A stretch of DNA of 45,337 nucleotides from a virus (Duplodnaviria > Heunggongvirae > Uroviricota > Caudoviricetes): the IMG/VR virus record IMGVR_UViG_2721755660_000004; one strand, written 5' to 3'. A model generated the notes under the pieces. The model searched no databases, was not told where the DNA came from, and saw only the letters and a program-made list of their open reading frames with translations. Numbering within the stretch: the stretch's first letter is position 1; each line of letters opens with the position of its first letter. Positions 5,485 through 9,478 of this stretch are shown here, piece after piece. The position numbers and the translations under genes are program-made.

Positions 5485-6141
5485 TCAGAAAATATCCCAC
5501 CTGGCATCAACTACAACACCTACTATTTCGCAATCATTGTCCATTTCTATGATTGGATATTGTGGATTAAGGGGCTTTAGAAACGCCTTTCCCATTTCAG
5601 AAATATATTTTTTGAATGTTGCTTCATTGGTGGATTTTTTTCTGGCGATGACGTAACACCCTGAAAAAACTTCTTTATCTGGGTTGACAAGGATCGACAT
5701 TCCTTCAGGAAATGTTATTCCTACGGGCGAAGTCATTGAGTCTCCGTGCACTTCCAGCCAGAACCCCCTATCACCAGCGTATTTTACAGAATGCCTCCAG
5801 TTATCCTGATCATACATGTTGTAGTCATCACCAGCAGTTGCGAATAATCCTGCCTGAACCCAGTTAATTACAGGGTAAGAGTGTGCTGTGTCTCTCTGTG
5901 GGCAGCTCTTAACATTATTTTCCCAATGCTTATCTTTTTCATCTCCGCTCTGAAGCCACTGCGGTGAACACTGCAGTGCAGCTGCGACTTTAAAAAGGGT
6001 GTCACCGTTGAAACTTTTTGTAAGGCCTTGCTCGGCTTTACTGATTGCAACTCTGGTGACCCCTGCTTTTTTAGCCAACGCATCTTGCGTTAACCCAGCT
6101 TTTTGTCGTGCGTTGATGAGGCGTTCACCTAAAGATTTCAT
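5485..6141 (-). CDS. cI: CI-type prophage repressor: N-terminal HTH plus C-terminal S24 (LexA-like) autopeptidase (218 aa)
   Basis: HTH (GLTQDALAKKAGVTRVAISKAEQG) and S24 motifs (GDSM..., later KK). AAGGAG SD before the ATG at 6141. Divergent from a cro-like gene. Confidence 0.9.
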   Translation of the reverse strand: MKSLGERLINARQKAGLTQDALAKKAGVTRVAISKAEQGLTKSFNGDTLFKVAAALQCSPQWLQSGDEKDKHWENNVKSCPQRDTAHSYPVINWVQAGLFATAGDDYNMYDQDNWRHSVKYAGDRGFWLEVHGDSMTSPVGITFPEGMSILVNPDKEVFSGCYVIARKKSTNEATFKKYISEMGKAFLKPLNPQYPIIEMDNDCEIVGVVVDARWDIF

Positions 6142-6163
6142 TTTTCTTCTCCTTTCATGGCTG

Positions 6164-6236
6164 CTGATACTAAAGTAACAGAATCTCTTGATACTTTGGA
6201 TTCTCGCGTTTAACATTCTTGGATAACAGAGTATCC
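6164..6236. promoter_or_regulatory. OR-type divergent control region (putative PR, with operators)
   Basis: On the plus strand: -35 TTGATA (6188-6193), 17-nt spacer, -10 TAACAT (6211-6216). TTGATACTTTGG (6188-6199) is identical to the OL copy. A related CTGATAC lies at 6164-6170, and GGATA-N6-TATCC at 6221-6236. Confidence 0.5.
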
Positions 6237-6252
6237 GGTGTGAGACTAAAGA

Positions 6253-6480
6253 ATGACCCTTTATGAAATATTAAAAACTCAATTTAAAACCAATGCCGCT
6301 ATTGGCCGCAGGTTCCCAAAGAAAGGAAAGCCTCGTGGCAGTCAAGGTGTTGGAAAGTGGAAAACGAGAGGTGTTCCAGAGGACGTAGCTATTCTCTGCC
6401 ATCTGGATCCAAGTATCCCGTATATCCATCCTGATTTAGCGCACACAGAAGAGGGGCAAGGTAAGCAATCGGAGGTGTGA
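6253..6480 (+). CDS. cro: Cro-like small DNA-binding regulator (75 aa)
   Basis: Small basic ORF divergent from cI across the operator region. Function is assigned mainly from position. Confidence 0.7.
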   Translation: MTLYEILKTQFKTNAAIGRRFPKKGKPRGSQGVGKWKTRGVPEDVAILCHLDPSIPYIHPDLAHTEEGQGKQSEV

Positions 6481-6481
6481 T

Positions 6482-7228
6482 ATGTCACAGTGCTTAGCGA
6501 TGCTTCAGAAACTTAATCAGCGTGTTAAGGCTGGGAAGAATTTCTGCGGGAGTTTTGATAACCGGAACAATCCGCCTGTCTTCATAGAGCTCACTAGCTT
6601 TCAGTGCGTTAAAAAAGTTATCTACGGCTTGTTGGTAACTTCGTGCTTGTCTGCTGCTCAGGTGAGGGCGCAGTCTTCTGAAATCGTCTCTGGATATATG
6701 TGGCATATCCCGTTTTCCGTCTCGGCAACCCTCGCGGAAGGCGTCAAGGATCAGGAACAATTCATCAGCGACGGCATTGAACTCTTTCCGCTTATCTCGA
6801 TTTTTGGCAAGCCAGTGTCCGAGCCAGGCGCCAAGTCCAAAAGCACTAACCGTCCAGATGAAGGTAACAAGGCGCGGGTTGGTATTGAACAGAAGAACAA
6901 ACTCACTCCAGATGATTCCCATAATTTCTGGCGACTCCTTTTTGTTCAGGTAGCGGCATTTCTTGTTGCATTTCCTGTTGGTGCTTATTTCAGCATGCGG
7001 GCAAATCTTCGCAATGACTGGCGTAAGCATATCCAGAAAGGAAGACGCCTGAAAGTACCCGTACTGGCTATGTTCTCCATCACAGGCATCAGCGATCGCA
7101 TTAAACCTCGATCTTGGCAGATATGGGAACGGAAGCATTGGTTTCAGGATATGCGGATATGCCATGGGATCGAGGCTGCTTATAGGGATGCATGGCTCTG
7201 GAAAAAGCGCGTAACTGAGAAGTGCTGA
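6482..7228 (+). CDS. Hypothetical protein (248 aa), possibly membrane-associated. Strand assignment is uncertain (see findings).
   Basis: The ATG lies 1 nt after the cro stop, with a GGAGG SD 6 nt upstream. It ends 38 nt before the next gene. An equally long codon-aligned antisense ORF (6494-7300) competes with it. Confidence 0.45.
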   Translation: MSQCLAMLQKLNQRVKAGKNFCGSFDNRNNPPVFIELTSFQCVKKVIYGLLVTSCLSAAQVRAQSSEIVSGYMWHIPFSVSATLAEGVKDQEQFISDGIELFPLISIFGKPVSEPGAKSKSTNRPDEGNKARVGIEQKNKLTPDDSHNFWRLLFVQVAAFLVAFPVGAYFSMRANLRNDWRKHIQKGRRLKVPVLAMFSITGISDRIKPRSWQIWERKHWFQDMRICHGIEAAYRDAWLWKKRVTEKC

Positions 7229-7265
7229 ACCGTGATCCCAATAATTTATCCGTAAGGAGGTATCA

Positions 7266-7973
7266 GTGAACACCGCAATTTTTAACGATAAAGCATCCAT
7301 GACCAGCGTTGAGATCGCAGAGCTGGTGGGTAGTCAGCACTCAGATGTTAAACGTAGTATCGAACGCCTGGTTGCTAAAAACGTCATCCGGAAACCGCCA
7401 ATGGCTGTTTCCGAGAAAATCAATAACTTAGGTTTTAAAGTTCAATATGAGCATTACCTGTTTGAAGGAGAACAAGGTAAGCGCGACAGCATCATTGTCG
7501 TCGCACAGCTCTGCCCTGAATTCACTGCTCGCCTGGTAGATCGCTGGCGCGAACTGGAAGAACAGATCCGTAAGCCAATGAGCGAAATCGAAATGGTTGC
7601 TGCGATGGCTCTTGAAGCCGTTCGTCAGCAAAAACGCCTCGACCAGATGGAAGAGAAAGTCACCCACGTTACTGAAACCGTCGAGCAAATCAAAAGAGGC
7701 ACCATACGCGATGGTTATGCAGGCTATCGTCAGCTGGTGGCGAAAACGGGTATGTCAGATGCGAAATGCCGCAATCCGGTGAACGCATATCAGATCCCTA
7801 CCGACACCCATGAATTTATGACGCCGGATGGATTGTTGTCTCGTCGCGCGATTGTTGCAGTAGAACCCTTCATGTCTGCTTTTCATCGCATGATGAGTGA
7901 AGCAGAACCACGAGGTACTCGCTGGTATCACCCGAAAATGGGGTTGTTCCAGGCGCTGGGCTGGCAGGTGTAA
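7266..7973 (+). CDS. Rha-family phage regulatory protein (235 aa, GTG start)
   Basis: N-terminus matches the Rha pattern (MTSVEIAELVGSQHSDVKRSIERLV). AAGGAGG SD 5 nt upstream of the GTG. Confidence 0.8.
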   Translation: MNTAIFNDKASMTSVEIAELVGSQHSDVKRSIERLVAKNVIRKPPMAVSEKINNLGFKVQYEHYLFEGEQGKRDSIIVVAQLCPEFTARLVDRWRELEEQIRKPMSEIEMVAAMALEAVRQQKRLDQMEEKVTHVTETVEQIKRGTIRDGYAGYRQLVAKTGMSDAKCRNPVNAYQIPTDTHEFMTPDGLLSRRAIVAVEPFMSAFHRMMSEAEPRGTRWYHPKMGLFQALGWQV

Positions 7974-7992
7974 TTATGCTCACAGGTAACAC

Positions 7993-8166
7993 ATGCAAGT
8001 ACTCAATCGCTGGTTCCGTGATGGAAGGGGGCGTCGCGTCCACGTTATACGCTGGGAGCCTGAAACACAGCGGGTTATTTACCTGCGTGATGGTTATCCG
8101 CATGAATGCTTCAGCCCGCTGTGGTTGTTTCGTCGTGATTTTGTTGAGTGTGAAGCACCAGCATAA
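7993..8166 (+). CDS. Small DUF4222-like protein (57 aa, hand-translated: MQVLNRWFRDGRGRRVHVIRWEPETQRVIYLRDGYPHECFSPLWLFRRDFVECEAPA)
   Basis: Below the ORF-track cutoff. It shares its pattern with 1765-2007 and 9475-9699. It replaces the implausible 5' part of the 500-aa track ORF. Confidence 0.5.
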   Translation: MQVLNRWFRDGRGRRVHVIRWEPETQRVIYLRDGYPHECFSPLWLFRRDFVECEAPA

Positions 8167-8229
8167 GCTTGAACTGCTTGAAAAACCTGGATATATCATT
8201 CTGATATCTAGAGTAATGGAGAATGGTAT

Positions 8230-8622
8230 ATGGGAAGAAAAGCAAGGCATCTTGCAAATAAAGAAATCATTAAAGTATTGGCTGAACGCTATCCAGAAAG
8301 CTTCTTTGTTATTCCATACAAAGTGGTTCCGCTTGTTCACGATATCGTTCATGAGCTCTTTGCCGATCTCGGACATATACCTAAGGAATACAAAAACAGC
8401 CTTCGAAGAGCCATCTATCAGTACAAAAGCTCAGATTCATACCTTCAGTCAGTCGCGTTTGGAGAATATCGCCGCAATCTGGCGGGAAATCGTATTGTCA
8501 GAACATCCGTATCTGAACGCGAAGAAGCCAGAGCACAACTCAAAGAACGTGGTATCTGGACTCGTCGTATGGAGCTCTTGTTCAAAGTTAATATGGGTAG
8601 AAAAGAAGCGTCTAATCGCTGA
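8230..8622 (+). CDS. ProQ/FinO-family RNA-binding protein (130 aa)
   Basis: Collinear with the remembered E. coli ProQ N-terminal domain: NKEIIKVLAERYPESF vs SKEVIAFLAERFPHCF; SLRRAIYQYKSSDSYL vs QLRSALRLYTSSWRYL; ...RRNLAGN...EEARAQLKE. GGAG SD 8 nt upstream. Confidence 0.85.
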   Translation: MGRKARHLANKEIIKVLAERYPESFFVIPYKVVPLVHDIVHELFADLGHIPKEYKNSLRRAIYQYKSSDSYLQSVAFGEYRRNLAGNRIVRTSVSEREEARAQLKERGIWTRRMELLFKVNMGRKEASNR

Positions 8623-8671
8623 ATTTTATCAAAACATTGATTCCTTAATTTCGGAACGTTACACTGTTCAG

Positions 8672-8748
8672 GCACCTTATAAAACGGGTGCCGGGATTGG
8701 CGTCCTGAAATTCAATATAGAGCATAACCGCGCTCATGCGGTTTTTTC
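8672..8748 (+). ncRNA. Candidate small RNA (about 75 nt) between a sigma70-like promoter and an intrinsic terminator
   Basis: -35 TTGATT (8637-8642), 17-nt spacer, -10 TACACT (8660-8665). 5' hairpin GGCACC-N10-GGTGCC (8671-8692). Terminator hairpin plus U-tract at 8726-8748. No credible ORF. Confidence 0.35.
8726..8748 (+). terminator. Rho-independent terminator (AACCGC-GCTCAT-GCGGTT + T6)
   Basis: 6-bp GC-rich stem followed by TTTTTT, seen directly. Confidence 0.6.
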
Positions 8749-8914
8749 GTGTCATGAGCATTGCTACGCCCAAATTATGGTGGGGCGTGCAGGGGCATCG
8801 CAAGATGCGCCGGGTTCTATGTTGACCGGTTACGCCAACCCTGTACGTCTCACCACCTCTGTGATTGGCGTCCCATGTGGTGAGTTCTTTGAATTCAACA
8901 TAGGGGCTGTCACC

Positions 8915-9478
8915 ATGACTACTCTCCCAACCCTCTCTCAACCTGAAATTGCGATCGTTGATGGTCAGGCTGTTACATCTTCTTTGGCTGTTGCTGACTT
9001 CTTCTCTAAACGTCATGACGATGTTCTGAAAAAGATCCGCATTTTGGATTGTTCTCCAGAGTTTTGTGCCCGCAATTTTGCGGAGACATCAATTTTGGTA
9101 CACCAGCCCAACGGCGGTACTCGCAAACTTCCTTGCTACCACATCACCCGCGATGGCTTCGCGTTCCTGGCAATGGGCTTTACTGGCAAACGTGCAGCCC
9201 GGTTCAAAGAGGCATACATCAACGCCTTTAACCAGATGGAGAAGAATTTATCTGGTGCTGACGCGGTTGATATGTCAGCTGTTGCACGAAACGCCAGAGG
9301 CGTATACCTGCATTTGCGTGAAATCCATCAAATCTGGAAAAGCCAGCTTTACCCCATGCTTAAGGCCGTTGAATCTCCGCTGGCGAGCAAGCTGTATGAC
9401 CGTGTAGGAGATGCTGTTTTTGGCGCTGCACTTGTTGATTCCAGACTTAATGGTTCTGACAAGGAGGCGCACCCATGA
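8915..9478 (+). CDS. Second Rha-family phage regulatory protein (187 aa)
   Basis: The internal start MTTLPTLSQPEIAIVDGQAVTSSLAVADFFSKRHDDVLKKI is the typical Rha N-terminus. The track's 500-aa ORF upstream of it crosses a terminator and the ProQ-like gene. Confidence 0.75.
   Translation: MTTLPTLSQPEIAIVDGQAVTSSLAVADFFSKRHDDVLKKIRILDCSPEFCARNFAETSILVHQPNGGTRKLPCYHITRDGFAFLAMGFTGKRAARFKEAYINAFNQMEKNLSGADAVDMSAVARNARGVYLHLREIHQIWKSQLYPMLKAVESPLASKLYDRVGDAVFGAALVDSRLNGSDKEAHP

Follow-up and report, generated by a model that had tools for sequence, protein, structure and literature searches.

Introduction

Long antisense protein-coding overlaps in bacteria and phages are contested, and the majority of reports are based on ribosome profiling of open reading frames (ORFs) that are young and little conserved. 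Here we analyze one such overlap in IMG/VR virus record IMGVR_UViG_2721755660_000004 (Caudoviricetes), a stretch of 45,337 nucleotides (nt) that we refer to as the window. A plus-strand ORF of 248 amino acids (aa; 6482-7228), directly behind a cro-like gene, shares its DNA with a minus-strand ORF of 268 aa (6494-7300), and a shorter form of the latter, a 142-aa gene at 6494-6922, lies fully inside the plus ORF in a codon-locked frame. Lysogeny-expressed accessory genes of immunity regions are familiar from lambda (rexA/rexB) and P22 (sieB), and in lambda the position directly downstream of cI is occupied by rexA/rexB. The minus-strand family resembles these genes in its place in the immunity region, its location on the repressor strand and its small predicted membrane product; two of its members (L049 and L053) also share the position of rexA/rexB downstream of cI, whereas the gene in the window lies beyond cro and not behind cI.

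The closest described architecture is that of the B3-like Pseudomonas phage Fc02, whose gene 10 comes after the cro-like gene ner and, in antisense, overlaps olg1 and olg2 of the repressor strand (Ramirez-Sanchez et al. 2023; PMC9936078). In that phage Gp10 was recovered in the insoluble fraction, superinfecting phages are excluded by Gp10 as well as by Olg1, a mapped distal promoter serves the lysogenic-strand genes together with the repressor, and the authors proposed that the two strands are expressed in opposite states (PMC9936078). The window likewise has a lytic-strand gene right after a cro-like gene that overlaps the repressor strand in antisense, although no sequence relationship to Fc02 is to be expected. 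It differs in that the evidence is evolutionary (about 30 lineages, phase switching and stop exclusion) and in that its repressor-strand gene is clearly the older and more constrained partner. Embedded antisense genes have also been described in E. coli O157:H7 and Pseudomonas aeruginosa (pop/ompA, ano and long P. aeruginosa genes); their support comes mainly from ribosome profiling or RNA sequencing, and the genes are described as evolutionarily novel (PMC7103648, PMC5960689, PMC8850804). These cases and ours have in common opposite-strand protein-coding ORFs of which standard annotation keeps one. In contrast, the overlap in the window is kept down to ~33% protein identity, and its embedded gene appears to be ancestral and the longer ORF overprinted. 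Judged by its conservation, the pair is an unusually well-supported instance of a known but rare and contested kind.

Results

Two frames are selected over different parts of the locus

The triplets of both ORFs start at positions congruent to 2 mod 3, and the two frames are therefore codon-locked in antisense, with codon position 1 facing position 3 and position 2 facing position 2. An earlier note on this DNA had correctly described the two ORFs, their coordinates and their shared triplets, but posed the locus as an either/or problem and chose the plus strand on operon logic. Public annotations contradict each other on strand as well. The window is a phiP27-like Stx2e prophage, with 99.8% identity to AJ298298/NC_003356 and 100% identity to a prophage of E. 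coli GB089 over 6200-7400; for the latter, the RefSeq Prokaryotic Genome Annotation Pipeline (PGAP) calls a plus-strand gene at 6500-7228, and the phiP27 records call the minus-strand gene L13 at 6494-7165 (223 aa).

A word-indexed protein search with the plus ORF returned nine proteins with identities down to 38%, nearly all of them ~248 aa long, while the same search with the 268-aa minus ORF matched the phiP27 L13 entry only. We retrieved the DNA of eight plus homologues and added loci L019 and L029 through pattern scans of genome and metagenome collections.

Comparison of these sequences reveals two oppositely phased regions. Over 6497-6922 (region A), differences at the first, second and third codon positions of the minus frame amount to 0.388, 0.287 and 0.525 in 11 sequences (0.376, 0.274 and 0.512 in 9 sequences). 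Over 6923-7225 (region B), it is the plus frame that shows the pattern of a coding sequence, with values of 0.243, 0.168 and 0.402 in 11 sequences. Ungapped close pairs concur (21/14/40 for the window versus L005), and the outcome is independent of which protein guides the alignment. In a sliding-window analysis the phase flips sharply at ~6910-6925, which is the position of the minus start codon.

The ratio of nonsynonymous to synonymous substitution (dN/dS; Nei-Gojobori method, 13 sequences, 78 pairs) divides the locus in the same way. In region A, the minus frame has a dN/dS of 0.12-0.27 and the plus frame one of 0.8-1.3, the minus value being lower in 78 of 78 pairs; in region B, it is 0.15-0.23 in the plus frame and 0.6-1.5 in the minus frame, with the plus value lower in all 78. 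We conclude from these comparisons that selection on the minus frame determines sequence evolution over 6497-6922. The substitution-phase check that the earlier note had proposed thus refutes an exclusive plus call and an exclusive minus call alike, and the either/or framing falls with them, as third-position variation is phased to minus over region A and to plus over region B. What remains of the operon logic is the Shine-Dalgarno sequence, the cro-adjacent start and the coding character of the 3' part; the exclusivity of the plus strand does not. Single-sequence codon usage is uninformative here: the margin of about 5 nats in favor of plus that had been tallied by hand becomes, when recomputed, a log-likelihood difference of ~1 nat either way and hence carries no meaning.

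Around the phase flip, all three codon positions are unusually conserved. Between 6851 and 6932, sequence pairs differ on average by 0.15-0.24 at the third positions of the minus frame, versus 0.45-0.69 in the remainder of the minus gene. This segment reads MGIIWSEFVLLFNTNP... in the minus frame and ...RPDE..GVEQKNKLTPDDSHKFW in the plus frame, and its hyper-conservation fits a dual constraint where the functional plus part would begin.

The minus strand encodes a member of a family of small membrane proteins

The homologues keep a minus ORF of 137-143 aa, which reaches from M(G/S)xIWSEF (ATG 6922 in the window) to (K/R)HR-stop (6494-6496 in the window), and both its start and its stop are kept in all homologues examined. 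Its Shine-Dalgarno sequence AAGGAG, which the earlier note had correctly placed 12 nt before an internal ATG, recurs in 10 of 11 close homologues and reads AAGTAG in L010. In the short form of the protein, the N-terminal 16 residues constitute a subfamily-specific extension; hydrophobic, transmembrane residues 18-36 are followed by KNRDKRK. The motif of the protein is GHWLAKNRDKRKEFNAVAD, behind which comes a helical C-terminal domain with a KHR end.

A phmmer search with the 142-aa protein against 1.84 billion representatives yielded 64 matches at E ≤ 1e-3, most of them 120-145 aa long and aligned across most of the protein length. Common to the members are a transmembrane helix near the N-terminus, the motif GHWLAxxRDRRKEFNxxAD and, at the C-terminus, a helical domain that closes with two basic residues. 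In their sources, all are named 'hypothetical protein' except for one evidently spurious label. These matches, together with a dN/dS of 0.12-0.27, bear out the earlier suspicion that the C-terminal ~140 aa of the minus ORF are a real membrane protein, and on this comparative evidence the 142-aa gene at 6494-6922 is genuine.

The protein and profile searches that the earlier note had suggested were otherwise of little help. Scans of both window translations against Pfam, PHROGs, NCBIfam and PADLOC gave no match, and neither did 25 minus-family members yield a meaningful one in Pfam and PADLOC, so that exclusion and defence families were not recovered in these libraries. A few members have scattered PHROGs matches to unannotated families (phrog_34525, one member, E 1.5e-13). 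Sequence searches of the PDB with profiles of both proteins returned no credible match, and tblastn with four queries against a phage collection found nothing beyond phiP27 itself.

The genomic setting of the family is consistent. In L031, L032 and L033, gene callers independently call members at a post-cro position on the repressor strand, before downstream early genes. In the low-GC (guanine plus cytosine) relatives L049 (1638-2815) and L053 (1340-2830), the family gene lies directly downstream of an S24 cI gene, on the same strand and opposite a Pfam Cro gene, and in L045 it lies downstream of an Arc-like repressor. The orientation on the repressor strand holds in the window, L031, L032, L033, L045, L049 and L053, that is, in every locus checked for it. 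Taken together, sequence conservation and gene context establish an old, widespread and un-named family of small, predicted single-pass membrane proteins in temperate-phage immunity regions.

It is thus extremely improbable that the plus ORF is the sole real gene, as PGAP and the earlier note had it, and that the minus ORF is a chance shadow. Operon packing, a good Shine-Dalgarno sequence and the choice of most gene callers speak for such a reading, as does a minus gene with no detected promoter or terminator. It is nevertheless at odds with phase and dN/dS over region A, with the kept start, stop and Shine-Dalgarno sequence of the minus gene, and with its 64 homologues, many of which come from loci with a stop-filled antisense frame and hence represent a stand-alone gene family.

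We also weighed the minus gene as a long form, either the 268-aa ORF or the annotated 223-aa L13. The ORF is indeed open up to 7300 in the window, and the phiP27 records annotate it as far as 7165. However, minus-frame stops lie just upstream of the short-form Met in 10 of 10 homologues examined, which confines the 268-aa and 223-aa forms to this lineage. Moreover, the DNA they would add is phased to the plus frame with a minus-frame dN/dS of 0.6-1.5, their starts have no Shine-Dalgarno sequence, and the family members are 120-145 aa long. We see practically no chance for a long form.

We note two further features of this strand. In agreement with the earlier note, the minus strand lacks a terminator-like site from 6494 up to cro, within which there is one weak site. 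At 7001-7014, 79 nt upstream of the minus ATG, the minus strand reads TTGCGAAGATTTGC, the sole copy in the window of the form TTGC-N6-TTGC, that of the lambda CII binding repeat. It was rejected as a promoter element, since it is absent from the homologues and at chance level (3.6 copies expected).

Stop codons are excluded from the plus frame opposite the minus gene

In the overlap, a plus-frame stop arises wherever the minus gene uses a TTA, CTA or TCA codon. Across 11 homologues, the minus gene has none of these: TTA and CTA are absent among 161 Leu codons, and TCA among 88 Ser codons, against a window background of 11.5% and 18.4%, respectively. A conservative test that counts each distinct codon once per alignment column gives P = 9e-8. 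In region B the three codons occur at a normal rate (22/158). With the codon usage of the window, a stop-free antisense frame over 142 codons has P ~0.02 in one sequence.

Five homologues (L019, L029, L031, L032 and L033) were ascertained without use of the plus N-terminus. The plus frame is open in each of them (joint P ~2e-8), which addresses ascertainment bias. A scan of IMG/VR with the minus family, excluding the window copy, added 23 further distinct intermediate relatives (33-52% identity, 38-52% GC), of which 20 are fully open and two have a single stop, while the remaining one, a distant sequence, contains 8. In L099 and L115, the lone stop lies nine codons inside the left edge and is followed by a new in-frame Met. 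After clustering at 90% identity, the antisense-locked plus frame is stop-free in 28 of 30 clusters, some of them at 38-42% GC, where locus-specific expectation is ~2-14 stops per sequence, some of the local backgrounds being built on few codons. In contrast, the antisense frame is open in only 4 of 31 distant family members, which are those without the N-terminal extension. An earlier tally, which counts the distant member L035 too, gave 15/15 versus 4/31 (Fisher test, P ~8e-9).

A chance shadow ORF would have produced interruptions that are not seen, which speaks against it as a source of this openness. Like an ordinary shadow ORF, the plus frame is codon-locked to a gene and has a dN/dS of about 1 in the overlap; unlike one, it is open in almost all of the diverged clusters and its start context is kept. 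In sum, stop-codon counts demonstrate that a large and diverged subfamily maintains a plus frame free of stops opposite the minus gene, and, within the comparisons made here, the absence of stops is the sole detectable plus-frame constraint in the overlap codons. This evidence is independent of expression: about 30 lineages keep a second frame open against several expected stops each, and the stand-alone relatives provide a clean internal control.

Start and C-terminal part of the plus ORF

The plus ORF is open, at 243-289 aa, in every homologue found with it. In every fetched locus except L009, 1-4 nt separate it from the cro-like or other gene upstream; its stop is kept, and in most loci the next gene on the same strand begins 2 nt past it. 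The GGAGG sequence 6 nt upstream of the plus ATG and the start 1 nt after the cro stop, both described in the earlier note, are present as read, and the context GAGG-YGTGAY-ATG recurs in 9 of 11 close homologues, with AGATGTGAC in a tenth (L009), despite differing upstream genes. In other clades, an ATG is placed no more than a few codons from the stop of the minus gene, such that a Shine-Dalgarno sequence with ATG, or an ATG near that stop, is found in nearly all lineages. Codon 6500, the PGAP start, is ATG or GTG in 14 of 14 sequences; its complement is the CAY codon for His141 of the minus protein, a residue that is invariant in the subfamily. No canonical in-frame start from 6500 up to the transmembrane helix is common to all homologues; internal candidates are GTG 6662 (10/11) and codon 6815 (7/11).

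Immediately after the minus ATG, plus residues 152-170 form a predicted hydrophobic helix (Kyte-Doolittle mean 2.09), which is followed by a basic tail of net charge +12. Given the phase and dN/dS of region B, the 3' ~100 codons of the plus ORF are genuine. The conserved and selected part of its product comprises the last ~100-125 residues: (I) a short hydrophilic stretch, (II) a predicted transmembrane helix and (III) the basic tail. A word-indexed protein search with the C-terminal 125 aa produced zero matches.

Several side observations concern this product. Between L067-L108 and the window, two alternative C-terminal tails of the lytic partner occur behind one FPxGxYFSM helix, a long WEQRxWF...AYRD type (as in the window) and a short RILAKRRRWMRFHQLKA...CQWLWF type. 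On the plus strand, a terminator-like hairpin with a T-rich tail is located at 6953-6969, inside the coding sequence of the transmembrane helix and just past the minus start codon; two terminator-like sites were found against 1.0 expected, and the hairpin could be due to chance. A lambda CII-type identity for the plus gene was rejected: Pfam, PHROG and NCBIfam gave no match, and CII, CP76 and helix-turn-helix assignments are unsupported. A separate CP76 gene adjoins the pair in L032, L033 and L052.

Probable translation across the overlap

We consider it probable that the locus is a conserved embedded antisense pair of two real genes, with translation of the plus frame running through the overlap. 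Ribosomes would initiate at the Shine-Dalgarno-ATG of 6482, coupled to the cro stop, and would then read ~140 codons antisense to the minus gene before reaching the plus C-terminal part. The 248-aa plus gene would be the second gene of the rightward cro operon.

A number of observations weigh against this explanation. Plus-frame dN/dS in the overlap is ~1, the same as for the untranslated minus frame over region B (0.6-1.5), and beyond stop exclusion nothing shows that the N-terminal 140 residues of the plus product matter as protein. AlphaFold2 models are of low confidence for the minus protein (single sequence; predicted local distance difference test, pLDDT, 53) and for the plus protein (pLDDT 41), and plus residues 1-143 fall below 50. 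At 6995, all 11 aligned homologues have an ATG or GTG that could serve as the start of a 77-aa product. As regards the minus gene, its 12-nt Shine-Dalgarno-ATG spacing is long, a consensus scan of that strand found no sigma-70-like promoter, and inspection of aligned upstream regions by eye revealed no conserved -35/-10 pair. Finally, database families are silent on the function of both proteins, which makes any function conjecture.

Some of these points would be accommodated if only the 142-aa minus gene and a short plus gene were real. Plus 6482-6922 would then be an untranslated shadow ORF, and the plus product would start internally, at ATG 6995 or at a non-canonical codon around 6880-6925. 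Long chance ORFs arise most often in codon-locked antisense frames. The neutral dN/dS of the overlap, the poorly modeled residues 1-143 and the conserved codon 6995 all agree with this alternative, and the stop and restart inside the overlap of L099 and L115 indicate that the full N-terminus is dispensable there. On the other hand, 6995 lies 24 codons into the plus-phased region, whose transmembrane-like conservation begins at 6923, and it has no clear Shine-Dalgarno sequence. An untranslated frame would also be at odds with stop exclusion in 28 of 30 clusters, when distant relatives are open in 4 of 31, with the openness of all five independently ascertained homologues, and with a left-edge Shine-Dalgarno sequence and ATG that are kept though the upstream genes differ. 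We therefore regard an untranslated overlap as improbable.

A variant of the embedded-pair explanation, whose probability overlaps with that of the explanation itself, holds that the plus overlap is translated merely as a bridge. Ribosomes on the pR transcript would prevent Rho-dependent polarity or an antisense-mRNA duplex and be delivered to the C-terminal domain, while the N-terminal peptide would have no role of its own. Such a bridge would account for stop exclusion without amino-acid constraint and for the tight coupling to the upstream stop codon; in addition, the ribosome-binding site and start of the minus gene occupy the beginning of the functional plus part, leaving no room for signals of its own. 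We judge it rather less likely than not. Against it, a Lys/Arg-flanked hydrophobic segment recurs at plus residues ~43-61 and some clades restart at a Met exactly there, in a signal-peptide-like context. This first hydrophobic segment may be functional and possibly supplies membrane topology, although antisense coding would yield N-terminal hydrophobicity of the plus product automatically.

With respect to these restarts, the new Met of L099 (2501-2929) and L115 (2501-2926) opens directly into a signal-peptide-like segment (MKNIKPVIASAAAILLSTIIVLPCSAQ and MKYKEIITIPAAAILLSLSIYTPC, respectively). A similar internal MKFVK... segment is seen in L098.

Proposed origin and expression of the pair

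Under the embedded-pair explanation, the small minus gene would be ancestral, given that its distant relatives occur as stand-alone genes, such as those directly behind cI. In the enterobacterial subfamily it would have come to sit between cro and the next lytic gene, and the frame of the lytic gene would then have been extended across it by antisense overprinting.

The two mRNAs would be convergently transcribed and complementary over ~430 nt, and expression of the two genes is therefore probably mutually exclusive. Tentatively, and with less confidence than we place in the pair itself, we propose state-specific expression, with the minus gene transcribed along with the lysogenic strand and the plus gene after derepression of pR. 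State-specific membrane roles such as superinfection exclusion are a guess by analogy. It is rather less likely than not that the pair constitutes an obligately linked cassette of two membrane proteins, the antisense embedding itself being a regulatory device. If true, the convergent and fully complementary transcripts would impose synthesis of one partner in the lysogen and permit that of the other only once pR has fired, and an exclusion or toxin/antidote-like membrane function would be passed between the proteins at the lysis-lysogeny switch; the overlap would then rank with the oldest and most strongly conserved antisense protein-coding overlaps known from bacteria or their phages. A type I toxin-antitoxin reading was discarded, since each partner is a protein longer than 140 aa and there is no sign of a small antisense RNA.

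Lysogens of phiP27 can be induced and the start signals of both partners are clear, which makes antisense openness without amino-acid constraint directly testable. The annotation conflict between phiP27 and PGAP is resolved in that neither is fully right, and gene callers that allow one gene per locus drop one partner or mis-start at every copy of the cassette. The analysis also defines the small membrane-protein family of temperate-phage immunity regions described above.

Features of the locus

The features of the locus are collected in Table 1. The gene at the cro position matches phrog_4749, which has no annotated function, and gave no match in a Pfam scan; genes at the same position in homologous loci match P22_Cro or YdaS_toxin.

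Table 1. Coordinates of the overlapping genes, their signals and their neighbors in the window
Feature	Position	Strand	Remarks
S24 repressor	5485-6216	minus	divergent from cro; same strand as the 142-aa gene
cro-like gene	6253-6480	plus	ORF; first gene of the rightward early operon; stop 1 nt before the plus ORF start
Shine-Dalgarno GGAGG of the plus ORF	6471-6475	plus	6-nt spacer to ATG 6482; from sequence
Plus ORF	6482-7228	plus	248 aa; residues 1-~147 antisense to the small gene, 152-170 predicted transmembrane helix, 171-248 basic, Trp-rich tail
Minus gene	6494-6922	minus	142 aa + stop; kept start and stop, substitution phase, phmmer family
Shine-Dalgarno AAGGAG of the minus gene	6935-6940	minus	12 nt before the ATG at 6920-6922
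Predicted minus transmembrane segment LVTFIWTVSAFGLGAWLGH	6815-6871	minus	Kyte-Doolittle 19-residue mean 1.32; kept across the family alignment
Candidate dual-constraint zone	6851-6932	both	all three codon positions hyper-conserved
Plus-selected part	6923-7225	plus	6935-6991, predicted transmembrane helix; 6992-7225, basic tail
Upstream extension of the minus ORF (268-aa and 223-aa L13 forms)	6923-7300	minus	not coding in the minus frame; open in this lineage only

Downstream of the pair, a mechanical ORF list contains a plus-strand ORF of 500 aa at 7976-9478, which PGAP does not call in GB089. PGAP annotates several shorter plus-strand genes there instead (DUF4222, ProQ/FinO family and Rha family), and the 500-aa ORF may be another long ORF that overlaps real genes.

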